NCBI GenBank assembly: GCA_036439915.1
Contig: GCA_036439915.1_3065.1
DNA from: a phage
Strand: one strand, 5' to 3'
Length of the DNA: 64,000 nt
Shown here: positions 15,728-63,473 of the stretch, in pieces
How positions within the stretch are numbered: position 1 is the first letter of the stretch
Layout: each line of letters begins with the position of its first letter
Position numbers and translations under genes: made by a program
The notes under the pieces: model-generated
What the model saw: only the letters and a program-made list of their open reading frames with translations
The model's database searches: none
Told to the model about the DNA's origin: nothing

Positions 15728-15730
15728 CAA

Positions 15731-15760
15731 TGGGGACCGAAAGGTCCCCATATTTTTATT
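15731..15760. terminator. Bidirectional terminator between gene 54 and the convergent alt-region ORF
   Basis: Stem TGGGGACC / GGTCCCCA with GAAA loop, T-runs both sides. Confidence 0.6.
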
Positions 15761-16046: not shown

Positions 16047-16052
16047 TTTGTG

Positions 16053-16108
16053 TTCCTCATGTTATGTCAGTAAGATTATTATAACACAACACGAGGGACT
16101 TGTAAACT
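16053..16108 (-). promoter_or_regulatory. Early-type promoter plus leader, copy 1 of a duplicated cassette
   Basis: Minus strand GTTTAC, 18-nt spacer, TATAAT, SD GAGGA; near-identical to 31846-31902. Confidence 0.5.
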
Positions 16109-18164
16109 ACATTTTGAACTTTTTAGACATTCCGTTGATATTAACCAAAGAAGCCAAGATTTGAGAAACTTCGTTTTCCTCTTCTTTTGATTCTTCTACA
16201 AGGAATTGATTAAATCCAGCCATTGGACGAACTTCACCAGTTTCCATTAGATGGTCGCCATCATATACCGATTCTTCTAATTGTTCAGAAGGAGGAACGA
16301 TTGTGCCTTCGATTAGATACTTGTTATAAGCAGTTTCTTTCATCATGTACGTACTCACTTTATTAATCTTCAGCAAAATTCCACGCGGTAGAATAACTTC
16401 AGCTTCTGATGGAAATCCTGATAAATGTCCTGGAACGATAACTTTGATTCGCTCAGCTCCTTTAATTACCATACCCACGCTAGTTTCAGCATCTTCATTG
16501 GCATACGCAGAATGACTACCCATATGCATTAAATCTTCAGCGTCAACAGAACCTTCTCCTTCACCAGAAAATACTGCACTGGAATCATCTAGGGCCATAT
16601 AGTTTTTACCATACTCACCGAAGATATTTGGTTTAAGCGATGTGGATACGAAGTTCTTGAAATAGAACATTTTATTTTCAATATTATGACGTAAAGTTTT
16701 AAAGGTAACTTCTTGGCCACGGTAAAGCGTAGTTCCTGGAGGAAGAACTGATCCTTTGGCAAAAGCAGAATCCATCGTCTCGATGTGTTTAATAGCTCGT
16801 TCCATATATTCTTCACGGGTAGAATCCGGTTTACCTAAAAGGAACGAGTTCATTTCAACATATGAATCTGCACAATAATCTTCAATTACATCAGACTCAG
16901 CCTGAGTTAATCCTTTTGGGGGTACTTCAGTACTTGCATATTCATACGCTTGAGAAGCAGACTCATTAATCAATTTATAAACGCCATTCATGACAAATTG
17001 AATAATAGCTACCTTTTCATCTGGCGTGGCTTTAGAACCTTTAACTAAATCATTGACAATTTTCTTAATAACATCAAAGCTATTAGAAATATTAATGTCA
17101 GCAAGATCACTTAAAATTTTATCAGTTTTATAATCAAAAAATTCTTTATTCTTTAAATATTCTTGAGAACCTTGATATGATATATCGCTCTGTAACTTGA
17201 TAGATGGATCACGTAAACGCGCATGAGCCAATGCAATATGATTTCGGAAGCTTTCTAATTCATAATCACTAGATTTAAAACGGGAAGCACTTCTCATACC
17301 ACCGATAGCTCCTTTGCTGAAGTTTGAACCAACCTGAATAACGCCGGAGTTCATTGGTCCTTCTGCTTTATATACCGGAACTTTAGATTCAAACTCTTGG
17401 TATTTCTTAGCAGCGAAGCTATCACCCTGAAGCGAAGCATCGACAGTAGAATATTGAGCTTGTGCTGCTAATCGACGACTAATTTTAGTTTTCTGAATAA
17501 CAGCTTGATCCGTGCGCTTATCATTTTCTAAAGCAATAGAAGCGGCAACAGCGACAGCTTTAGGAACAGCATTACCTGTTTTAACATCTACATAAACATC
17601 ACCAACCTTTGATTCAACTTTTGTGAATAACTCAGTTGAAATAGGAGGTACACCTGGAATGTCTTCTAAATTGGCATTTTTACGGTAAACCATAATATAT
17701 GCATATTTCTTATCATAGTCCCAGATTTCTTTTAAAAGAACATATCGACCTGCTCCTTTAGTACGTACTAAACGGTCAGCAATAACTTGAATTTGTCGAG
17801 CTGCGCCATTTGTTTTACTCTTTAGTACGCGGAATAAGCATGCGTCAATTTTGTACTGTTTCATTGTCTGAAGAGCAGTATCAAAAACCGCATTAATGGC
17901 ACCAATTGGATTTCCACCCAAGTTTTTAAGTTTAACTAATGATAGTTTCTCATTGACACCTATCATTACGATATGCATCATTTTATCGCCTGGCTTAACG
18001 TTTTTGTTTGTATCACCGCCAGAGGTGTATGTACAAAATCTAAATCCAGGAAGCACGCTTTCTTCACCTGCTTGAATAGCAAAAATTTGAGGTATTTTAT
18101 GCTTAGGATTTAAGTTAACAACCGGCGCCGAAGCGCCGTCAAATAATTCTGTAATAAGTTCCAT
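16107..18164 (-). CDS. Alt-like mono-ADP-ribosyltransferase, second tandem paralog
   Basis: 685 aa; starts MELITELFD; ART motifs YRGQ, FVSTSL, AEVILPRG; 3 nt after upstream alt copy. Confidence 0.8.
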   Translation of the reverse strand: MELITELFDGASAPVVNLNPKHKIPQIFAIQAGEESVLPGFRFCTYTSGGDTNKNVKPGDKMMHIVMIGVNEKLSLVKLKNLGGNPIGAINAVFDTALQTMKQYKIDACLFRVLKSKTNGAARQIQVIADRLVRTKGAGRYVLLKEIWDYDKKYAYIMVYRKNANLEDIPGVPPISTELFTKVESKVGDVYVDVKTGNAVPKAVAVAASIALENDKRTDQAVIQKTKISRRLAAQAQYSTVDASLQGDSFAAKKYQEFESKVPVYKAEGPMNSGVIQVGSNFSKGAIGGMRSASRFKSSDYELESFRNHIALAHARLRDPSIKLQSDISYQGSQEYLKNKEFFDYKTDKILSDLADINISNSFDVIKKIVNDLVKGSKATPDEKVAIIQFVMNGVYKLINESASQAYEYASTEVPPKGLTQAESDVIEDYCADSYVEMNSFLLGKPDSTREEYMERAIKHIETMDSAFAKGSVLPPGTTLYRGQEVTFKTLRHNIENKMFYFKNFVSTSLKPNIFGEYGKNYMALDDSSAVFSGEGEGSVDAEDLMHMGSHSAYANEDAETSVGMVIKGAERIKVIVPGHLSGFPSEAEVILPRGILLKINKVSTYMMKETAYNKYLIEGTIVPPSEQLEESVYDGDHLMETGEVRPMAGFNQFLVEESKEEENEVSQILASLVNINGMSKKFKM

Positions 18165-18167
18165 GAT

Positions 18168-20264
18168 TTATCCTTGAACGAACTTGTAAGGCATGTTTGT
18201 AATATCTATGCAAGACGCAATAATTCCGAGAGATGATTCTGCTTTCTGTTTAACATTTGATGAAACAAATGATGCAAAGTCAACTCTGTCTTCTATTTCA
18301 ATATCATCTGTCATTGCAACTACTTCACCAGTTTCCATTAGACGGTCACCGTCATAAATTACTGATTCGGTGAGTTCTTCCGTAGTCATAACTTCAGTTT
18401 GAATGAGTTTTGTATTATTAGATGTTGTTCCGTCATTATTAGAAGCATCAGTTATTTTATTAACTTTGACCATCAATCCGCGTGGTAGAATTACTTCAGC
18501 TTCTGTTGCTATTCCGAGACTTCCTGGATATACAACATTAACTTTATGAGCTCCATCAATTGCCCATCCTATTTGAACTTTAACGTATTCAGGATTTTCT
18601 TTATACGCTCTTATTTCGTTTGGATTAATAGTTATTCCTTCTTCATTTTTATCAACTGTTAATTCATTACGAGCTTCTGGTTCTAAAAGACCGATACCAG
18701 CATGTGTAATTCCAAAACGTCCAAAAATGATAGGAGTTAAAGAAGTAGATACAAAATTTCTGAAATAGAACACTTTATTTTTAACTAGCGCTTCGTATAT
18801 AGGAGCAGTCATACTTTGAGCACGATAAACTGTAATGCCTTCTGGTATACGGTCACCATTTTCAAAAGCTGAATCTAAATTATTTATCGCAGATTCAATT
18901 TCTTTTTCACTCATTACATCATATCGTTCTGGATTGTAACGACCCAAAAGAAGATTATTGATGTCAGTATATCCTGAACCACAATACTCTCTAATGCCGC
19001 GCTTTTGTGATGGAGTATATTTAGAACCATCACGGGCAATAGTAATATCAATCATTGGACCTGCACCAATTCCAGAAAAGCTATAAATCATTCGTTTGAG
19101 GAATTTAGTTTTTGCTGCGTTCCAGGAATTTTTAGTTATTTCTTCCCAGACTTCATCTGACTGCCCTTTACGGGTTTTATTATGTTTATCAAGCCAATTA
19201 TCTTTATATTCTTCAAAGAATTTATTAATAGCTGCTGCATACTTCTCTAAACATTTTATTGAAGTGGTTGGTTCATTTTTAATCGCATTGAGAATTACAT
19301 CTTTAATTTTTTCAGAAACTTCATTAACCTCACTTTTTGAAAAGAATTTATAGTCATAGTGAAGTTCATCTGCGGTTCCTTCGGCAATAATTTTTGCTGC
19401 CTTAGTTTTAGAAGCTAATGAATTAATTCCAAGCTTCATTTCTTCTGCTTCGGGAATTAAAGGAGCTGTAGCAGGTTTATTGAAATTAGCTGCGGTAGAT
19501 TCATATTTCTGGAATAATTCGCTTTCAAATCTAGAAGATTCTAATGACTGACTTTGCGCAATTGCTCTACGGGAAATTTTAACTTTAACGATTACAGCTT
19601 GGTCAGAACGTTTATCATTTTCTTGCGCAATAGATGCAGCAATTGCCTCATTTTTAGTTACTTGAGCTCCAGTATCTTTATTGATATAAACATCGCCGAC
19701 TTTCGATTCAACTTTAGTAAAGAGCTCGGTACTAATTTCCGGAACTCCTGGAATGTCTTCTAGTGATACATTTTTGCGATGTATAAGAATATATGCATAC
19801 TTTTTATCATAATCCCAGAGTTCCTTAAGAAGGACGTATCTTCCACCTGAACGACTACGGATAAGTCTATCAGCAATAACTTGAATTTGTCGAGCTTGAC
19901 CAGCAGTTTTAGACTTAAGAATACGGAGCATACAGGCATCAATTTTATACTGACGCATCGTCTGCATTGCAACAGTAAAAACTGAATTGATGTAATTAAT
20001 TGGGCTTGGACCGAGACCTTTTAATTTAGCAATTGAACCTTTAGCAGTTAATGTAAAAGGAACAATATGCATCATTTTATCGCCCATTTTTAAATCGCGA
20101 TTAGTATCACCTCCAGATGTATAGGTACATAAACGAAAGCCTGGTTGTTCAATTGCGTCATCAACGTGAACTGAAAAAATTTGTGGTATTTTCTTCTTTG
20201 GATTTAAGTTTGTAATCGGAAGAGTAGTATCTTCGTCAAATAATTCTGTAATAAGTTCCATCAT
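18168..20264 (-). CDS. alt: Alt ADP-ribosyltransferase (virion-packaged)
   Basis: 698 aa; starts MMELITELFD; ART motifs YRAQ, FVSTSL, AEVILPRG; late promoter upstream; adjacent to gene 30. Confidence 0.85.
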   Translation of the reverse strand: MMELITELFDEDTTLPITNLNPKKKIPQIFSVHVDDAIEQPGFRLCTYTSGGDTNRDLKMGDKMMHIVPFTLTAKGSIAKLKGLGPSPINYINSVFTVAMQTMRQYKIDACMLRILKSKTAGQARQIQVIADRLIRSRSGGRYVLLKELWDYDKKYAYILIHRKNVSLEDIPGVPEISTELFTKVESKVGDVYINKDTGAQVTKNEAIAASIAQENDKRSDQAVIVKVKISRRAIAQSQSLESSRFESELFQKYESTAANFNKPATAPLIPEAEEMKLGINSLASKTKAAKIIAEGTADELHYDYKFFSKSEVNEVSEKIKDVILNAIKNEPTTSIKCLEKYAAAINKFFEEYKDNWLDKHNKTRKGQSDEVWEEITKNSWNAAKTKFLKRMIYSFSGIGAGPMIDITIARDGSKYTPSQKRGIREYCGSGYTDINNLLLGRYNPERYDVMSEKEIESAINNLDSAFENGDRIPEGITVYRAQSMTAPIYEALVKNKVFYFRNFVSTSLTPIIFGRFGITHAGIGLLEPEARNELTVDKNEEGITINPNEIRAYKENPEYVKVQIGWAIDGAHKVNVVYPGSLGIATEAEVILPRGLMVKVNKITDASNNDGTTSNNTKLIQTEVMTTEELTESVIYDGDRLMETGEVVAMTDDIEIEDRVDFASFVSSNVKQKAESSLGIIASCIDITNMPYKFVQG

Positions 20265-23522: not shown

Positions 23523-23715
23523 TACTTATAATTTCAACATCAGCCCAATGACCATAGCAAGGAAGACGAAATTCAACTGGCCAGTTAGGGTCCTTTTCTA
23601 ATATAATAGACTTAACTTGTGGTTCTTCATGTTCATCGGTATACGGACCTTTATACGTTACTTTATATGTGACCTTAATGTACTGAATTCCAAAAATCTT
23701 ATTAATTATATTCAT
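23509..23715 (-). CDS. Hypothetical protein
   Basis: 68-aa ORF in tightly packed early-gene run. Confidence 0.5.
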   Translation of the reverse strand: MNIINKIFGIQYIKVTYKVTYKGPYTDEHEEPQVKSIILEKDPNWPVEFRLPCYGHWADVEIISIENV

Positions 23716-23909
23716 ACTAATTCCTTTAATCCGTAAATAGGAGACAATTCATCACCCATACGAAGGTCTTCATTTCCATCTACCCAGGAAACAATATAAG
23801 CCTCTTTTATTTGAACACCACTCCATTTAAATGGAGGTAGAACCTTAGAAATTAATCCAGGTATACCAACTCCCTTTAATTCAACAGTTTGACCTAAAAA
23901 GAATTTCAT
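23712..23909 (-). CDS. Hypothetical protein
   Basis: 65-aa ORF, overlapping start/stop. Confidence 0.5.
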   Translation of the reverse strand: MKFFLGQTVELKGVGIPGLISKVLPPFKWSGVQIKEAYIVSWVDGNEDLRMGDELSPIYGLKELV

Positions 23910-24196
23910 TAGAACCTCATCTGAAAACCATGCGATTTAACATTACCGCCGCCAATATCAGAAATATTAATTTCACGCGCAATTGAAGGGTCAATGTCAA
24001 TTTCACGATTAAGTTTAGCGATAGCTAAAGTATCACGCCCATTTACTGTACGGAATTCTAAAGGACAAACCACATCAACGTAATTTTTAATCGATTCACT
24101 GGTAGGCTGCAAATGAGCAGGAAGGTCTTTAGGTGCCTTTGAGAAAACCACTTCACAAAAATTTTTGCGGGTGTCAAAATAAGTAGTCATAAACAT
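23909..24196 (-). CDS. Hypothetical protein
   Basis: 95-aa ORF preceded by hairpin and SD. Confidence 0.55.
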   Translation of the reverse strand: MFMTTYFDTRKNFCEVVFSKAPKDLPAHLQPTSESIKNYVDVVCPLEFRTVNGRDTLAIAKLNREIDIDPSIAREINISDIGGGNVKSHGFQMRF

Positions 24197-24237
24197 AATA
24201 TTTTCCTCAGTAAGGGGCCGAAGCCCCTCATTTTATT

Positions 24238-24603
24238 TTAAATATCAAATTCGTTAAGAACTACATCAAAGATTGCTTCAAGATGCTCAGGTTTAGCTCT
24301 GTTACTCAGAATATGACGAATCCAAGTTTTAACCAAAAGCTTGCGATTATCACCATTCCAGCAAGGATGAGTCCCTAAATCGCGTTGACGAAAATCATCA
24401 TCTAAAGCGATTTTAAAATTTGAACCTTCCACTGTGATTGAAACCGTGATGCCATTTTCAAATCGCATATAAACGTAGTTAGGAGTCATATACTGTTCAA
24501 TTTCGCATACTGATCCATTTTGATGTTTCCAAAGGCAAATAGTATCAATAGAACCTGCAATACCATTAGAAACATATTTACGTTCAAAGTTGATGTAGTT
24601 CAT
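24238..24603 (-). CDS. Hypothetical protein
   Basis: 121-aa ORF. Confidence 0.55.
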   Translation of the reverse strand: MNYINFERKYVSNGIAGSIDTICLWKHQNGSVCEIEQYMTPNYVYMRFENGITVSITVEGSNFKIALDDDFRQRDLGTHPCWNGDNRKLLVKTWIRHILSNRAKPEHLEAIFDVVLNEFDI

Positions 24604-24623
24604 TTTTGTTCTCCGAGATGTTT

Positions 24624-24669
24624 AATTGCGGTACAGGTATATAATATCATATCCTGTACCAAAGTAAAC
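24624..24669 (-). promoter_or_regulatory. Early-type promoter with its -10 inside an 8-bp inverted repeat
   Basis: Minus GTTTAC, 17-nt spacer, TATTAT; inverted repeat GGTACAGG / CCTGTACC flanks the -10. Confidence 0.4.
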
Positions 24670-24671
24670 AA

Positions 24672-25004
24672 TTATTTTACTACTTTCCAGTGCTTCATGT
24701 CAAGTTTACCGACTTTTTTCATCTTCTCAATTAAGCGTTCGGCACGTTGGCGAGCTGTAACATAATACCATTCACCTAATTCATTTTGTTCAATTTTTCC
24801 AACGATTACTGTATTCAATTCATAAATCCAACCAGTAAAGAAATTATGAACTTGAATTGTAAAGGTGAAATCTGTTCCCATACCTTCTGTTGTTTCTACT
24901 TCAATAATATCACCTTCAACTGCTATTAAGAACCACATAGTTTCGTTATATTCACCATTGAAGCATTTAGCTTTAACTGCAGCGTTCAGATTAATCGTTT
25001 TCAT
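24672..25004 (-). CDS. Hypothetical protein
   Basis: 110-aa ORF with early-type promoter upstream. Confidence 0.55.
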   Translation of the reverse strand: MKTINLNAAVKAKCFNGEYNETMWFLIAVEGDIIEVETTEGMGTDFTFTIQVHNFFTGWIYELNTVIVGKIEQNELGEWYYVTARQRAERLIEKMKKVGKLDMKHWKVVK

Positions 25005-25031: not shown

Positions 25032-25061
25032 ATACTATCACAAAGGAACCATACTGTAAAC
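25032..25061 (-). promoter_or_regulatory. Early-type promoter
   Basis: Minus GTTTAC, 18-nt spacer, TAGTAT. Confidence 0.4.
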
Positions 25062-25075
25062 AACTTTATGCAATC

Positions 25076-25110
25076 TTTGGAAAATAAAAAAGGACTCCCG
25101 AAGGAGTCCT
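25076..25110 (-). terminator. Intrinsic terminator
   Basis: Stem AGGACTCC / GGAGTCCT with CGAA loop; long U-run on minus strand. Confidence 0.6.
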
Positions 25111-27784: not shown

Positions 27785-28017
27785 AGTACGCCATACACCC
27801 TTTGTGCTTCAACTAATCCATCAAAATCTAATTTAAGATGCGATATTTGATCGCCATCACCTGGATTCACAATTACTAATACTGAACGAGGAGTTTCGGT
27901 AATAACACGAACCGATGTTTCAGGAAATCGTTCAGAAATCCTATTTACTAATTCCTGCGCAAATAGTTTAACTTTTTCTTGGAATTCTTTAACAGTAATT
28001 GGTTTTTCACTTAGCAT
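27781..28017 (-). CDS. Hypothetical protein (cd.x region)
   Basis: 78-aa ORF. Confidence 0.5.
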   Translation of the reverse strand: MLSEKPITVKEFQEKVKLFAQELVNRISERFPETSVRVITETPRSVLVIVNPGDGDQISHLKLDFDGLVEAQRVYGVL

Positions 28018-28538
28018 GTTGATCCCAGCTCCTTACTTTCAACGTTTTTAACTAATTTGACAGAAACTAATTCAGCATCTTGGGTAATCATTACCGGACC
28101 TTCTTCATACTCTTCAAGATATTCTAGAGCTTTCTTTTTAGCTTCTTCCTTCGTATCAGTTTGAGCATAGATATAGAACATACAACCAGTAATACCTACT
28201 ACTTTCCACTTAATTTCTTTATCAGTTTTAATTTCAAATTTACTTACAGAATCATCTTTTTGAACTTCTTCGAAAAAAGAATATTCTAACATATAAGCAA
28301 TTGAAAATAACGGGCTAACTTTATAGGATTCACCCATTACATCAACAGCTTTATACCAGCAGTCATCAATTTCGCGTTTAATGCTAATAACATTTTTCGC
28401 AGGGTCAATTTTTACTTTAAATGAATTTTCCCCAATAAACTGGGCAATTCGTTTATTAGCCCCGCAAGTTTCATTAAAAATATCTTTATATCCAGCTTTA
28501 AAGCGATAAACCTTATCTTCTTCAAACCATTCGCTCAT
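28011..28538 (-). CDS. Hypothetical protein (cd.x region)
   Basis: 175-aa ORF with early-type promoter upstream. Confidence 0.55.
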   Translation of the reverse strand: MSEWFEEDKVYRFKAGYKDIFNETCGANKRIAQFIGENSFKVKIDPAKNVISIKREIDDCWYKAVDVMGESYKVSPLFSIAYMLEYSFFEEVQKDDSVSKFEIKTDKEIKWKVVGITGCMFYIYAQTDTKEEAKKKALEYLEEYEEGPVMITQDAELVSVKLVKNVESKELGSTC

Positions 28539-28573
28539 TTCAATTTCCTCATTTGTTTTGGTAGAGCTATAAT

Positions 28574-28603
28574 ATCACAACTCTACCGTAAAGTAAACTA
28601 TTA
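28574..28603 (-). promoter_or_regulatory. Early-type promoter
   Basis: Minus GTTTAC, 18-nt spacer, TATTAT. Confidence 0.4.
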
Positions 28604-31840: not shown

Positions 31841-31845
31841 CATAA

Positions 31846-31902
31846 AGTCCTCATGTTATGTCAGTAAAACTACTATAACACAACACGAGGGACTTGTAAA
31901 CA
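31846..31902 (-). promoter_or_regulatory. Early-type promoter plus leader, copy 2 of duplicated cassette
   Basis: Minus GTTTAC, 18-nt spacer, TATAGT, SD GAGGA; near-identical to 16053-16108. Confidence 0.5.
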
Positions 31903-40265: not shown

Positions 40266-40364
40266 TTTATTCTCCTTAGCAAGCTTTAATCAAAAGATAT
40301 AAACAAACTAACATAACTGCTGCCATAATATAAGGTGCGAACATTTTCTTTTCTCCATTAGTTT

Positions 40365-40394
40365 TGATAGGGTAATAGTATCACACTACTACCC
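40365..40394 (-). promoter_or_regulatory. Early-type promoter (cassette family)
   Basis: Minus GTTTAC, 18-nt spacer, TACTAT. Confidence 0.4.
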
Positions 40395-40403
40395 TGCTGT
40401 AAA

Positions 40404-40781
40404 CTACTTTTTGAAAGTTTTTCGCAAAAGTTCAATGATTCGATCTACATTGTTTTCGTCAACGATGCAGTGAATTTTTGTTACGCCAGAAATCGTGTCT
40501 TCGCCTTCATCTTCAGAAATCGGTTCTTTATACTCGCGAAAGCAATAAAATTCGTCTTCGCAAATTTCTGAAAGTCTATCACAAAAGTAAAAATGTTTTC
40601 CATTGGCGCATTCAATATGTTTTACTGCTTTAAATCCATTATTAAAGAAAACTTCTTTAACTTCAAACCATCCACCATTTTCTTTGATAATTTTAACTAT
40701 CGATCCATTAGAACGTGGGCTATGACTAATAAATGCGTCAATGAGACTTGGAATAAGTTCATACTTTTTACCGATATACAT
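40404..40781 (-). CDS. Hypothetical protein, extra ORF between frd region and gene 32
   Basis: 125-aa ORF preceded by hairpin and SD. Confidence 0.5.
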   Translation of the reverse strand: MYIGKKYELIPSLIDAFISHSPRSNGSIVKIIKENGGWFEVKEVFFNNGFKAVKHIECANGKHFYFCDRLSEICEDEFYCFREYKEPISEDEGEDTISGVTKIHCIVDENNVDRIIELLRKTFKK

Positions 40782-40826
40782 TTTCTTTTCCTCATTTTTA
40801 AGGGGCTATCAATAACCCCTTGATAA

Positions 40827-41054
40827 TTATCGTTCAATCAGTCCCATGTAAAACTCTGCGTCTTCGGCATCCATACCATCACAGTATTCATTAGCCATAA
40901 AGCGTTCAAGAACTTCTAAAGGACCTTCAACAACAATTTGAATACTCCAAAATTTAGAATCTTGCACACTTGTGATGCTAAGTTCAGGATAACGATTACG
41001 AATAATTTCTTCGATGTATTCAAAATCAACGATGTCAATATCAACTTTAGCCAT
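40827..41054 (-). CDS. Hypothetical protein, extra ORF between frd region and gene 32
   Basis: 75 aa from internal ATG (SD AGAGGAAA); track N-terminus reads through the promoter cassette. Confidence 0.5.
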
Positions 41055-41087
41055 ATTATTTTCCTCTTTAATCATCAACAGTATTGC

Positions 41088-41117
41088 CGATAGTTGTATA
41101 GTACCATGGAACGACAA
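41088..41117 (-). promoter_or_regulatory. Early-type promoter (PeSL-like cassette)
   Basis: Minus GTTTAC, 18-nt spacer, TACTAT, A/T-rich upstream; directly 3' of gene 32 terminator. Confidence 0.5.
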
Positions 41118-41144
41118 GGATGTAAACAGTTTTGTGAAAAAATT

Positions 41145-41176
41145 TTTGAAATAAAAATGGGGACCTCTAGGGTCCC
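41145..41176 (-). terminator. Intrinsic terminator after gene 32
   Basis: Stem GGGGACC / GGTCCCC, 5-nt loop, U-run on minus strand. Confidence 0.6.
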
Positions 41177-41199
41177 CGATTAATTAGTAATATAATCTA

Positions 41200-44369: not shown

Positions 44370-44431
44370 ATGAACCTCGTTCAATTAGTGAGATTTCTAT
44401 TATATACCATCCGAATCTTAAAGTAAACAAG

Positions 44432-55283: not shown

Positions 55284-55436
55284 TCAATTAGTTGACTTTA
55301 TTATAATATCATCAGACACTCGATTTGTAAACTGGTCTGTGTTATTTTCTTCAAAAATTTTTTCTACGAATTCCTTGAACGACTCGCGTTCCTGAGCTAC
55401 ATTATGCTCGATTACCTTTTCAAGATTATGACTCAT
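55284..55436 (-). CDS. Small acidic protein (50 aa), not in ORF track
   Basis: ATG at 55436 overlaps arn stop (ATGA); TGA at 55284-55286. Confidence 0.4.
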   Translation of the reverse strand: MSHNLEKVIEHNVAQERESFKEFVEKIFEENNTDQFTNRVSDDIIIKSTN

Positions 55437-57767: not shown

Positions 57768-57797
57768 ATAGTACCACAGTATGCTTTGGTTGTAAAC
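57768..57797 (-). promoter_or_regulatory. Early-type promoter for motA (PeSL-like cassette)
   Basis: Minus GTTTAC, 18-nt spacer, TACTAT, A/T-rich upstream; sequence near-identical to 41088-41117 cassette. Confidence 0.55.
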
Positions 57798-57814
57798 CGT
57801 TTTGTGAAAAAAAT

Positions 57815-57849
57815 TTTTGAAATAAAAAAGGGAGAGCCTCGGCTCTCCC
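57815..57849 (-). terminator. Intrinsic terminator after gene 52 operon
   Basis: Stem GGGAGAGC / GCTCTCCC with CTCG loop; U-run on minus strand. Confidence 0.6.
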
Positions 57850-57855
57850 TAAAAA

Positions 57856-60903: not shown

Positions 60904-60933
60904 ATAGTACCACGGAAGAACAGTCTTGTAAAC
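60904..60933 (-). promoter_or_regulatory. Early-type promoter (cassette family)
   Basis: Minus GTTTAC, 18-nt spacer, TACTAT; leader CAACTACGGAGG shared with 61391-61415. Confidence 0.45.
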
Positions 60934-61117: not shown

Positions 61118-61381
61118 TCATAGCTCAATCTCAGCGATTTTCATTTCATTACTATTAATAGCCGCTTTAAGACTATCTGAAAGAATTACATTCCAATGGT
61201 CATTCATATGACCACTAACTAAGCGTGTAATTTCTTCGGGAGTTGAAAAATAAGGCGTATCAGACTCCCAATGCGATAATCCTAAGCGAGTATAAATCAT
61301 ACCTTCATCATCGCTAGAATATTCAACTGACACAAACTCATCAGTTATTTTATGTTTAGCGTAATGAAATTTAAATTTCAT
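61118..61381 (-). CDS. Hypothetical protein (ndd.x / denB-proximal)
   Basis: 87 aa from internal ATG with SD GGAGGAG. Confidence 0.5.
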   Translation of the reverse strand: MKFKFHYAKHKITDEFVSVEYSSDDEGMIYTRLGLSHWESDTPYFSTPEEITRLVSGHMNDHWNVILSDSLKAAINSNEMKIAEIEL

Positions 61382-61409
61382 TTTCCGCTCCTCCGTAGTT
61401 GATAGTTGT

Positions 61410-61439
61410 ATAGTACCACGGTCCTTGTGGTATGTAAAC
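61410..61439 (-). promoter_or_regulatory. Early-type promoter (cassette family)
   Basis: Minus GTTTAC, 18-nt spacer, TACTAT, A/T-rich upstream. Confidence 0.45.
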
Positions 61440-62292: not shown

Positions 62293-62310
62293 AAGGGCCG
62301 AAGCCCTTAT
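62293..62310. repeat. Hairpin AAGGGC-CGAA-GCCCTT, copy 1 of direct repeat
   Basis: 18-bp identity to 62521-62538; flanks the 64-aa ORF. Confidence 0.8.
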
Positions 62311-62520: not shown

Positions 62521-62540
62521 AAGGGCCGAAGCCCTTATTT
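62521..62540. repeat. Hairpin AAGGGC-CGAA-GCCCTT, copy 2 of direct repeat (overlaps rIIB stop)
   Basis: 18-bp identity to 62293-62310. Confidence 0.8.
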
Positions 62541-63473
62541 AAATTGTTCAGTAACGTCTTCAATTACTTCGTATTGGCAGGTACGCATTTTAGCGTCGTT
62601 GTAATCAATCGGAATTGATACTACATCACGAGGATGAACTTTAACTTTTACAACTCGGCTGGTTGAACCACCGAAGTGACGAATATAAGATTTAGAACAC
62701 ACATGCAGACCACGAGAACAAGTTTGTGTATCATCGTCATTCACACGAGTACGCGGCATTTTAACTACTTTACCAGGACTGTTATCAAAGGTATTTGAGT
62801 GACAGTCAAAGTAATTGCTACGAACTACTTTCCAAGCATAGAAGTAACCATCTTCTGTAATTTCAATATCGTTTGCTACCAAGAAATCAAAAAGTCGAGA
62901 TACCGCTTTCTGGCTTGGGTTTTCCAGCAGATTTTCCAAGAACGGAAAATAAAATTCAAAGTTTTCGCCTTTTTCCATCGAATCAAGAATACGATCAACC
63001 AAACCAGACCGCAATTCAATATTTTGATAGAATAAGCTTCCACCTTCAATTCGAACTTCGCCGGAAATATATTTTTCAACAGCGCGACGAACATTAATTT
63101 TTTGTGCCGCTTCTTCCAGCTTATCCGCTACAAGCAGATTGAGAATTTCCTGGAAGTTTGAATGAGTATTAGGCGTTGCATTATAAGTTACACCATCAAC
63201 AGTAATCGAAATGAATTTTTTAGATGCATTCCAAATAATGTCAGATTTAGCAACTGGAGCAATAACTGCATCGCTATTAACTTTAACTGTAATATCACCG
63301 CTAATAGTAATTTTAGAGTGTTTAGCTTCTTCAGCATTTTTCAAAACACGACGGATTGTATCAACCGATACACCTTGCCAATCAGCCAATTCTTGCTGAG
63401 TATAATTACCGCTTGAATACAGTTTAACAATTTCAGCTTGTTCATTTTTGGTCAGGCATTTAATATTGTACAT
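62535..63473 (-). CDS. rIIB: rIIB
   Basis: 312 aa (T4 rIIB length), downstream of rIIA. Confidence 0.85.
   Translation of the reverse strand: MYNIKCLTKNEQAEIVKLYSSGNYTQQELADWQGVSVDTIRRVLKNAEEAKHSKITISGDITVKVNSDAVIAPVAKSDIIWNASKKFISITVDGVTYNATPNTHSNFQEILNLLVADKLEEAAQKINVRRAVEKYISGEVRIEGGSLFYQNIELRSGLVDRILDSMEKGENFEFYFPFLENLLENPSQKAVSRLFDFLVANDIEITEDGYFYAWKVVRSNYFDCHSNTFDNSPGKVVKMPRTRVNDDDTQTCSRGLHVCSKSYIRHFGGSTSRVVKVKVHPRDVVSIPIDYNDAKMRTCQYEVIEDVTEQFK

Follow-up and report, generated by a model that had tools for sequence, protein, structure and literature searches.

Locus and features

The window analysed here is a stretch of 64,000 nt from a Tequatrovirus (T4-like phage) that is 95-98% identical to Sf23, AUBRB02 and BECP11. 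The focal interval, 40375-41127, carries frd.3 and frd.2, is collinear with T4 and is bounded on either side by a copy of the same short element. Exactly 12 copies of this element, GTTTAC-N17/18-TAnnnT, are present in the window, all of them on the minus strand, where the early genes are also encoded, and each is followed 20-50 nt downstream by an SD sequence and an ATG (12/12). The genes that they are predicted to drive include motA, asiA, alc, rnh, frd.3, frd.1, 30.7, 30.8, alt.-3 and ndd.4. The predicted promoters and the terminators linked to them are listed below; in the text, copies are named by the upper coordinate of the core.

16052-16107, minus strand: early promoter of the alt.-3 homologue (core 16078-16107); T4 orthologue at 123093
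24629-24669, minus strand: early promoter of the gene 30.7 homologue (core 24641-24669, spacer 1 nt shorter); T4 orthologue at 129918
25032-25061, minus strand: early promoter of the gene 30.8 homologue; T4 orthologue at 130310
25091-25110, minus strand: intrinsic terminator after 30.9, AGGACTCC ttcg GGAGTCCT then T6; -15.4 kcal/mol; 30 nt upstream of the -35 of the 25061 promoter
28560-28598, minus strand: early promoter (core 28569-28598), orthologue of T4 Pe133295; predicted to drive a 175-aa ORF (28538-28014) absent from T4
31845-31901, minus strand: alc early promoter (core 31872-31901) in a long hairpin (-24.4 kcal/mol, z -6.6); T4 orthologue at 136336
40375-40404, minus strand: early promoter sharing its -35 G with the frd.2 stop codon; predicted to drive a 22-aa ORF (40344-40279) and frd.1; T4 orthologue at 146143
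41098-41127, minus strand: early promoter, core GTTTACA-N-TGGTACTAT, downstream of gene 32; predicted to drive frd.3 (ATG 41054), whose product has a Frd3 Pfam match; T4 orthologue at 146875
41159-41177, minus strand: gene 32 intrinsic terminator, GGGGACC ctaga GGTCCCC and T-run; -14.6 kcal/mol; 32 nt upstream of the -35
44399-44428, minus strand: rnh early promoter in the divergent rnh/gene 34 intergenic region; T4 orthologue at 150763
55303-55332, minus strand: asiA early promoter, inside the asiA.1 coding sequence; T4 orthologue at 161211
57768-57797, minus strand: motA early promoter (ATG 57726; MotA Pfam matches), UP element 57800-57818; T4 orthologue at 163673
57829-57850, minus strand: intrinsic terminator after motA.1, AGGGAGAGC cgag GCTCTCCCT then T6; -17.6 kcal/mol, z -3.9; 32 nt upstream of the -35
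60904-60933, minus strand: early promoter upstream of the ndd.4 homologue; T4 orthologue at 166807
61410-61439, minus strand: early promoter downstream of denB; predicted to drive an 87-aa ORF (61381-61121) absent from T4; T4 orthologue at 167086, where it drives ndd.6 instead

Composition of the repeat family

The pattern GTTTAC-N16-19-TANNNT has 13 matches in the window, against 3.2 ± 1.5 in shuffled sequence; because none of 100 shuffles reached 13, chance matches are rejected. The minus strand carries 12 of the 13. When a PWM built from the 12 copies themselves was scanned on both strands, these sites scored 22-41 bits, the weakest being the rnh promoter (44399-44428, 22 bits), while the next best site reached 15.8 and the top plus-strand site 5.3. 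An independent repeat search also recovered the family (D1, seven copies, 58 nt; D2, three copies, 75 nt). The preliminary description had reported near-identical minus-strand elements of 50-90 bp. The family and its strand are borne out, and the near-identity was overstated, ungapped identity to the reference copy being 60-77%. Four of its seven coordinate pairs are exact; the remaining cores lie at 40375-40404, 41098-41127 and 28569-28598, not at 40365-40394, 41088-41117 and 28574-28603. Five copies had been missed (16078-16107, 24641-24669, 31872-31901, 44399-44428 and 55303-55332), among them both members of the sole truly near-identical pair, 16107/31901, which is 94% identical over 54 nt (repeat D10).

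What the copies have in common is limited to the blocks contacted by RNA polymerase and to some of the leader. Anchored pairwise identity is 0.37 in the upstream 40 nt and 0.38 in the leader. In the 10-nt variable spacer it is 0.31, that is, random, against 0.94 in the -35 heptamer and 0.64 in the extended -10, which points to constraint rather than copying. The longest exact matches between copies are 28, 25, 21, 18, 17 and 17 nt, with a median of 8. All 12 copies place the -35 sequence GTTTAC(A/T) about 17 nt upstream of a TAnnnT -10, and 11 of them have TGn before the -10. The A/T-rich upstream block TTTTCACAAAAC/AAATTTTT, described earlier as frequent, is limited to three copies (41127, 57797 and 61439), and the supposedly conserved leader CAACTACGGAGG to two (60933 and 61439), the leader of the former being 80% identical to that of the latter up to the ATG. 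UP elements were scored against what we take to be the consensus of Estrem et al. (1998). With at most one mismatch to this assumed consensus, near-consensus UP elements lie at 41130-41147 and 57800-57818, both in terminator-linked copies, and the pattern has 8 matches in the window against 2.4 expected. The remaining copies are A/T-rich upstream, with a looser UP match than these two.

Probable identity as early promoters

A GTTTAC promoter lies at the orthologous position in T4 for 12/12 copies, the sequences differing by a few bases. For one of these T4 orthologues the predicted +1 (G of GTTTAC minus 36) coincides with Pe133295, an early promoter named in the T4 record. The T4 GenBank/RefSeq records hold no promoter features besides this one note, so that orthology to a named Pe is directly demonstrable for Pe133295 only; a literature search found no genome-wide T4 TSS map. 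Compared with the anatomy of T4 early promoters (Hinton 2010; Nolan 2006), the copies agree in GTTTAC at -36 to -31, the TGn and TAnnnT of the -10, an A-rich UP region, an extra consensus around +1 and a site upstream of early genes. Nothing essential differs; two promoters of this phage are placed before ORFs absent from T4 (28538-28014 and 61381-61121), and the spacer allele is another one at the gene 32-side promoter. The elements are thus very probably (probability about 0.9) early promoters that depend on sigma-70 and were inherited by this T4-like phage at the genome positions of T4 Pe; the preliminary description had likewise taken them for early promoters. Their activity in this phage is predicted from sequence and T4 orthology. 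T4-type early promoters and the promoter early stem-loop (PeSL) cassette have already been published for T4 and its relatives; the finding is real and not new.

Judging from the sequence and the T4 literature, host RNA polymerase would touch each element at four places. The alpha-CTDs would bind the A/T-rich UP element (-60 to -38), GTTTAC(A/T) would be read by region 4 of sigma, the TGn extension by its region 3 and TAnnnT by its region 2. Transcription would start about 7 nt downstream of the -10, the mRNA reaching the SD and ATG 20-50 nt further, and the spacer between the contact blocks would be free to vary. The copies would look alike because common selection acts on the contact blocks and on a portion of the initially transcribed sequence (..CTATCAAC..).

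Associated stem-loops

A stem-loop is paired with 8 of the 12 promoters, as a terminator upstream (three copies) or as a hairpin across the -10 (five copies); these eight are therefore composites of promoter and stem-loop of the PeSL type (Arbiol 2010; Comeau 2014). The case for PeSL-like cassettes is hence stronger than in the preliminary description, which had paired terminators with some copies and had not noted the straddling hairpins. Copies 61439, 60933, 55332 and 44428 lack a stem-loop and are plain promoters.

The gene 32 and motA-side terminators reported earlier are real, and all three upstream terminators have canonical T-runs. The promoter-paired terminator at 25091-25110 had been missing from the earlier account. 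Of the 10 minus-strand terminators, three are found at 30-32 nt from a -35; the chance expectation is about 0.15. In these copies the stem-loop would serve as a canonical intrinsic terminator, closing the preceding transcription unit 30-32 nt ahead of the -35, and its T-run would merge into the UP element. The 41098-41127 core contains no internal hairpin (z -0.8). The order of terminator and GTTTACA after gene 32 is kept in 23/25 Tevenvirinae loci; an IMG/VR gp32 search, which returned only four close relatives, was used for this deep conservation of the gene 32 terminator and promoter.

The five straddling hairpins have z scores from -3.4 to -6.6. Besides the alc hairpin (31845-31895), whose 3' arm covers the alc SD (GAGGA), they comprise an SD-covering hairpin of the same kind at the alt.-3 promoter (16052-16099; -21.4 kcal/mol, z -4.8), GGTACAGG...CCTGTACC at the 24669 promoter (24629-24661; -16.1 kcal/mol, z -5.0), and those across the -10 of the 28598 promoter (28560-28587; -16.3 kcal/mol, z -5.1) and the 40404 promoter (40369-40395; -15.2 kcal/mol, z -3.4), the last with compensatory arm variants in relatives. 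In all five copies the upstream ORF ends right at the -35, and the hairpin is formed by pairing of the promoter spacer with the leader. Inverted repeats of at least 6 bp occur in 4/12 copies against 0.64 expected (p=0.002), and in other genera in 7/21 against 2.6 expected (p=0.003); spacer-leader hairpins are found at 5/12 copies here and, in other Tevenvirinae genera, at roughly every third early promoter. The arms are not the same from one lineage to the next, and their pairing register shifts too, three registers occurring in alignment A1; the compensatory changes that go with this were judged by inspection only. Having no U-tail, the straddling hairpins are not canonical terminators. An Rfam scan of the whole window at the gathering threshold gave no matches, so no curated RNA family accounts for them.

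A straddling hairpin would be possible only in RNA that reads through from upstream, not in RNA started at its own promoter. We tentatively suggest that these hairpins are a selected device, by which an early promoter doubles as an RNA-level insulator; we hold this for possible rather than probable. Folding of the read-through RNA might protect its 3' end or cause attenuation, and at alc and alt.-3 it might mask the SD. The 5' arm is missing from RNA started at the promoter, and under the insulator reading every downstream gene would owe practically all of its expression to its own promoter. These inverted repeats might, in addition, trigger local recombination and gene conversion between copies. 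In T4, the genes e, soc and I-TevI are under translational control by a hairpin that contains a promoter. The SD of alc and alt.-3 likewise pairs with sequence upstream of the start site, so that only transcripts of the internal promoter would have a free SD. In the T4 cases late promoters lie within hairpins of early read-through RNA, whereas here the internal promoter is itself early. In the read-through RNA of alc and alt.-3 the hairpin would bury the SD.

Structural variation among relatives

A total of 14 structural differences from T4 were counted, six of which are homing-endonuclease genes (HEGs) or introns and one a tail-fibre adhesin swap. Only three of the remaining seven adjoin a promoter (16126, 28017-28535 and 61151-61391). 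The earlier claim that the copies bracket exactly the regions departing from T4 is not supported as worded, the focal interval being itself collinear. Indel statistics were taken from nine Tequatrovirus records, annotated or unannotated, since the IMG/VR loci were unsuited to this purpose. Among these nine relatives, 7/12 promoter junctions are structurally variable against 10/63 other junctions (p=0.004), or 6/12 by a conservative count (p=0.016). The CJY920 deletion 23557-24988 was left out of the promoter-adjacent count because its end lies 14 nt inside gene 30.8. The correlation of cassettes with indels that had been put forward for checking is thus statistically real across the nine relatives, and it is partial, not exact. 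It is also confounded in two ways: the non-coding gaps that hold promoters are longer than others, and an ORF newly inserted behind a promoter has a better chance of expression and retention.

Probable exchange between copies and alternative readings

Two readings that would take the elements for something other than early promoters are rejected. MotA/AsiA-dependent middle promoters share the sigma-70 -10, often with TGn. Their MotA box, (a/t)(a/t)TGCTT(t/c)A centred at -30, replaces the -35, whereas the -35 here is GTTTAC and not a MotA box (TGCTTtA at -30); the MotA-box core TGCTT is absent from all 12 spacers, and 0/12 predicted T4 starts match the 19 middle-promoter starts mapped at 100-169 kb. 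This lack of a MotA box and of any coincidence with mapped middle starts makes the reading extremely improbable. Only slightly less improbable is an origin from a small mobile element spreading through the genome, either MITE-like or a cassette with a dedicated recombinase to move it. Such an origin would agree with a dispersed family that a repeat search recovers and with the 94% identity of the D10 pair, and a helper protein was speculated on by Arbiol (2010). However, the copies occupy the same positions in T4, Sf23, ZN18, PEC04, G28, ES26 and CJY920, all 12 share strand and position relative to the ATG, their spacers are unrelated, and they have no terminal inverted repeats or target-site duplications; the reading was rejected on these grounds.

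A closer competitor accepts the elements as promoters and nothing more. Their similarity would then come entirely from shared selection for RNA-polymerase binding, the indel link from tolerant gaps and the need of inserted genes for a promoter, and the promoter sequence would have no role in recombination. Random spacers and the vertical inheritance of all copies as T4 promoter orthologues fit this, as does the presence of a promoter on one side only at most insertions, 28017-28535 and 61151-61391 included; roughly one in two non-HEG indel sites is at a junction that has no promoter. Against it stand three observations. The post-gene 32 promoter has unrelated 13-nt spacers in T4, the window and PEC04. 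The PEC04 allele, which occurs in about 36 phage records, agrees at 12/13 positions with the denB-side promoter spacer at a distance of 20 kb, and at the gene 32 site of PEC04 and HY01 this borrowed spacer lies within about 62 nt of shared sequence. Leader types are swapped among the motA, ndd.6 and ndd.4 sites. The motA site of ES26 and ZN18 has the order promoter-ORF-promoter, the extra ORF lying between two promoter/leader copies with a 23-nt direct repeat in both leaders. The spacer and leader swaps between distant copies suggest that ectopic exchange occurs, and a role as promoters only appears rather unlikely.

For early promoters that also take part in exchange, comparative data suggest that the identical blocks of 17-28 nt may be occasional substrates for homologous recombination of the phage. 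These blocks are shorter than the ~50 bp that efficient recombination in T4 is said to require (Arbiol 2010, citing Singer 1982). Following the published PeSL model, recombination would lead to gene conversion between distant copies and to gain or loss of ORFs beside promoters.

Relation to described cassettes

PeSL cassettes have been described for RB49/phi1, with stem-loop positions that include straddling of the -10 (Arbiol 2010), and for T4/PST, with the consensus TTTACW-N17-TAYWAT, and KVP40/nt-1 (Comeau 2014). The present elements likewise combine an AT-rich block, early promoter, stem-loop, SD and ATG within about 100 bp, have the stem-loop upstream or across the -10, and are enriched beside ORF-scale indels; the ndd.4-ndd.6 region is itself an example in Comeau 2014 (Fig. 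6A). Tandem copies that flank variable ORFs are a further shared trait. The tandem pairs of the window are 25061/24669, 61439/60933 and 41127/40404, which lie 392 bp, 506 bp and 723 bp apart; a variable ORF between two cassette copies is found at the motA site of ES26/ZN18, not at 28017-28535 or 61151-61391. The differences concern the stem-loop, which only 8/12 copies have here. The PST figure legend (Comeau 2014) puts T-even stem-loops just upstream of the promoter, whereas five hairpins here straddle the -10 as in RB49/phi1. Lambdoid morons resemble these cassettes in that extra ORFs come and go as self-contained transcription units between conserved genes, but the regulatory sequences that flank morons are neither conserved repeats nor thought to mediate exchange (Arbiol 2010).

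Biological meaning

The outcome is a description of the early transcription units of this phage, 12 predicted promoters and three promoter-linked terminators, which carries little weight beyond annotation. The gene 32-side promoter, which occurs with different spacers matching other promoters in the same genome, may offer specialists a cheap handle on the concerted evolution of dispersed regulatory repeats, and a second such handle may lie in the many T-even early promoters that sit in compensated hairpins. Both details extend known work and open no new question. For the T4-type phages, an independent genome and nine relatives confirm the published idea that these cassettes are preferred sites of gene gain, loss and exchange.

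Genome setting

The window belongs to a Tequatrovirus (T4-like) genome and is collinear with T4 coordinates ~105.7 to 168.9 kb. Its 38-44 kb segment is 97.3% identical to Shigella phage Sf23, and the 55-64 kb segment is 97.6-97.9% identical to AUBRB02, BECP11 and Sf23. The minus-strand genes near the two focal promoter copies are td, frd, frd.1, frd.2, frd.3, 32, 59, 33, dsbA and rnh; Frd3, Frd2, DUF5417 (frd.1) and MotA were confirmed with Pfam. Positions 16127-19455 hold ~1.7 kb more than T4, where the fragments alt.-1 and alt.-2 stand, and contain internal repeats spaced ~2.1 kb (repeat families D4, D5, D9 and D17); together these point to a complete second alt-like ADP-ribosyltransferase gene that stands in tandem with alt.

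Promoter family

The pattern GTTTAC-N16-19-TANNNT was matched 13 times in the window, compared with 3.2 +/- 1.5 in dinucleotide shuffles, of which 0/100 reached 13. All but one of the matches (12/13) lie on the minus strand, and each of these 12 copies is followed 20-50 nt downstream by a Shine-Dalgarno sequence (SD) and ATG. A PWM made from the 12 scores them at 22-41 bits; the next best site scores 15.8 and the best plus-strand site 5.3 bits, and no further copies were found by the PWM scan of the window. A prior-free repeat search recovered the family as D1 (7 copies, 58 nt, 60-76%), D2 (3 copies, 75 nt, 64-77%) and D10 (2 copies, 54 nt, 94%). Copies are named here after the -35 end of the core.

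Promoter copies and linked terminators
41098-41127, minus, focal copy 41127, promoter of frd.3
40375-40404, minus, focal copy 40404, promoter of a 22-codon ORF and frd.1
28569-28598, minus, copy 28598
57797, minus, promoter of motA
60933, minus, promoter upstream of the ndd.4 homologue
61439, minus, denB-side promoter
31901, minus, promoter of alc
16107, minus, promoter of alt.-3
24669, 25061, 44428 and 55332, minus, further copies
41159-41177, 57829-57850 and 25091-25110, minus, promoter-linked terminators from the hairpin scan

The preliminary description had placed four copies exactly, the two focal copies 10 nt and 28569-28598 5 nt away from the true cores, and had missed five (16107, 24669, 31901, 44428 and 55332). 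It had also called the elements near-identical over 50-90 bp. Comparison of copies anchored at -35 and -10 gave mean pairwise identities of 0.94 for the -35 heptamer, 0.64 for the 13-nt extended -10, 0.31 for the 10-nt variable spacer (random for such composition), 0.37 for the 40 nt upstream and 0.38 for the 30-nt leader, so that this wording is wrong for the family overall. Closer likeness occurs within sub-families: 41127, 57797 and 61439 have tttcaaaaattttttcacaaaac and TGGTACTATacaactatc in common, 60933 and 61439 the leader as far as the ATG (80%), 40404 and 60933 TACTATtaccctatcaa, and 16107 and 31901 are 94% identical across 54 nt. Exact matches shared by two copies have a median length of 8 nt; the longest are 28, 25, 21, 18, 17 and 17 nt.

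The copies have the anatomy of T4 early promoters, which have been characterised for decades (Hinton 2010; Nolan et al. 2006) and are described as UP/-35/TGn/-10 promoters with extra consensus regions (Hinton 2010), with GTTTAC at -36 to -31 and an A-rich block at -40 to -44 (Nolan et al. 2006). TGn precedes the -10 in 11/12 copies, and T4 carries a syntenic counterpart of each copy (167086, 166807, 163673, 161211, 150763, 146875, 146143, 136336, 133331, 130310, 129918 and 123093). The T4 record names an "early promoter Pe133295 between cd.2 and cd.3", which equals 133331 minus 36 exactly, the predicted +1. The upstream block of two terminator-linked copies has at most one mismatch to the UP-element consensus of E. 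coli. MotA-dependent middle promoters were rejected as an identity for the family: no mapped start of such a promoter falls on a predicted start site, and the spacers lack MotA boxes. An Rfam scan of the window returned no matches. The pattern match GTTTACAATACTTTG.ACTGGAGCTACAAT, antisense inside gene 34, is kept in several relatives (T4 151291; PEC04, locus L086, 27483; CJY920, L089, 25691; BCH953P2, L090, 10430) and has no match in the window.

Stem-loops

Ten terminator-like hairpins were found on the minus strand of the window. For three of these, a -35 follows 30-32 nt downstream of the hairpin, where chance would give ~0.15 cases; the preliminary description had paired two of the three with promoters. 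The order gene 32 stop, intrinsic terminator, GTTTACA promoter, leader, SD and ATG is kept in 23/25 Tevenvirinae loci from several genera, in agreement with the reported conservation of the terminator downstream of gene 32 (Nolan 2006), and the gene that follows this block varies.

Strong hairpins, in which the -35/-10 spacer pairs with the first leader nucleotides, are predicted at 28598, 24669, 40404, 16107 and 31901 (-15.2 to -24.4 kcal/mol, z -3.4 to -6.6); folding gave none at 41127, 57797, 61439 and 60933. Perfect inverted repeats of at least 6 bp in this geometry occur in 4/12 copies (0.64 expected, p=0.002) and in 7/21 promoters of other Tevenvirinae genera (2.6 expected, p=0.003), where the arms reach 13 bp, and folding energies are bimodal across 66 distinct early promoters. 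The arms vary by lineage, as does the register in which they pair. Examples of compensatory change come from the frd.1 promoter (GGGTAGTA/TATTACCC, GGGTTAT/ATAACCC and GGCTAT/ATAGCC), and changes in the alc hairpin of CJY920 preserve structure. At all five hairpin promoters the stop of the preceding ORF is at most ~10 nt from the -35, leaving no space for a separate terminator. A position across the -10 is among those given for the PeSL (promoter-early stem-loop) hairpin by Arbiol et al. 2010. With three upstream terminators and five spacer-leader hairpins, 8/12 copies are promoter and stem-loop composites and four are plain promoters.

The alt.-3 (16052-16107) and alc (31845-31901) promoters with their leaders, which are the 94% identical pair, stand 15.8 kb apart on the minus strand. 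Their long hairpins (-21 and -24 kcal/mol, respectively) vary in relatives only in the loop or in ways that preserve pairing. Since the 3' arm covers the SD in both, the predicted folds suggest that the SD would be free only in transcripts begun at the internal early promoter.

Other hairpins were also observed. GC-rich tetraloop hairpins (GGGCC-GAAG-GCCC / GGGACC-GAAA-GGTCCC) stand between convergent or tandem genes at 62293-62308, 62521-62546, 24213-24228, 2209-2230 and 15730-15751, and look like bidirectional terminators because several have T-runs after them on both strands. A small stem-loop without T-run, AAGGGG-ttattgatag-CCCCTT, lies at 40800-40826 (minus, between frd.3 and frd.2), just before the frd.2 SD. 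Several other Tevenvirinae genera (comparison loci L008-L011, L020, L022, L025 and L026) have a long palindrome, absent from the window, that lies ~30-110 nt past the stop codon of gene 32 and separates the terminator of this gene from the early promoter downstream (e.g. gtaacgtaaaagttac...gtaacttttacgttac and ggcacatatatgttacat...atgtaacatatatgtgcc).

Gene-content differences

The window and T4 differ structurally at 14 places. Six are homing-endonuclease genes or introns found in T4 only, namely segD, segE, the I-TevIII intron, nrdB.1 with mobE, the td intron with I-TevI, and segG, which are lacking at window positions 849/910, 5676/5696, 34022, 34698/34754, 37880 and 42171/42207; the subsets differ among relatives, where extra ones include an HNH gene between nrdB and nrdA and an insertion in nrdA. 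One is the gene 37/38 adhesin swap. Only three of the other seven adjoin a promoter.

Promoter-adjoining differences from T4
16126, upstream edge of 16107
28017-28535, ORF inserted in the 28598 leader
61151-61391, ORF inserted in the 61439 leader

Besides T4, the relatives Sf23, ZN18, PEC04, G28, ES26, CJY920, BCH953P2 and three IMG/VR contigs were compared. Among these, the leader is deleted or the entire promoter replaced at 40404, the terminator and UP element are deleted at 41127 (ZN18), an extra ORF is inserted at 57797 and at 61439 (the latter in G28), and 31901 is tandemly duplicated in G28; ~10 more variable sites lie at promoter-free junctions. For most insertions a promoter stands on one side only. 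The G28 duplication (locus L087, 12422-12773) repeats 352 bp in tandem, from the rnlA 3' end through the alc promoter to nt 141 of alc, so that the promoter is present twice in identical form and one copy of alc is truncated. The 22-codon hydrophobic ORF directly behind the 40404 promoter (40279-40344, minus, MFAPYIMAAVMLVCLYLLIKAC) has no annotation in T4 or Sf23; PEC04, G28, CJY920 and BCH953P2 each show a precise deletion of it.

Over ~75 minus-strand gene junctions, counted on the Sf23 annotation, 7/12 promoter junctions are variable vs 10/63 others (Fisher p=0.004), or 6/12 on a conservative count (p=0.016). The association of promoters with indels is real but partial. Gap length is a confounder, as is selection for new insertions to be expressed. 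The proposal that the cassettes bracket exactly the regions departing from T4 holds as an enrichment but was overstated, with three of seven differences adjoining a promoter and the frd.3-frd.2 interval between the focal copies collinear with T4.

Probable exchange between copies

At the promoter after gene 32 the flanks are constant and the 13-nt spacers are unrelated between phages.

Spacers of the gene 32-side promoter
TCCTTGTC(G/C)TTCC, window, Sf23 and G28
AGCATAAAGCTTT, T4
TTCCTGTTCTTCC, ZN18, close to the 60933 spacer
TACCACAAGGACT, PEC04, equal at 12/13 positions to the spacer of the denB-side 61439, 20 kb away

The PEC04-type allele recurs at >=95% identity over 121 nt in ~36 phage records, which rules out an assembly artefact. 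Phages also differ in the leader at the 61439 site, which belongs either to the "caactacggagga" type (cf. 60933) or to the "caactactgatacgga" type (cf. motA). In ES26 an intact terminator, promoter and leader precede a 228-bp ORF, and another promoter stands between this ORF and motA; ctatcaaataaatgaactgaaac is common to both leaders. The arrangement in ZN18 is the same, but all that is left of the first copy is a -10 half-site, joined to the stem of the terminator, matching the "degraded PeSL" of Comeau 2014. The spacer and leader variants and the ES26 and ZN18 arrangements fit occasional homologous exchange via 17-28-nt shared blocks.

Relation to published cassettes

From RB49/phi1, Arbiol 2010 described the promoter/stem-loop composite and proposed a role for it in modular shuffling. 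Comeau 2014 then reported the PeSL explicitly in the T-even pair T4/PST and gave its consensus as TTTACW-N17-TAYWAT; the ndd.4/ndd.5 region, an example in that paper, is also in the window. Because both early promoters and PeSL cassettes are published, including for T4/PST, the finding is already known, a known feature correctly recognised in one more T4-like genome. What the window adds to published work is modest, namely hairpins straddling the -10 of T-even promoters and a gene 32 site that is polymorphic in its spacer.
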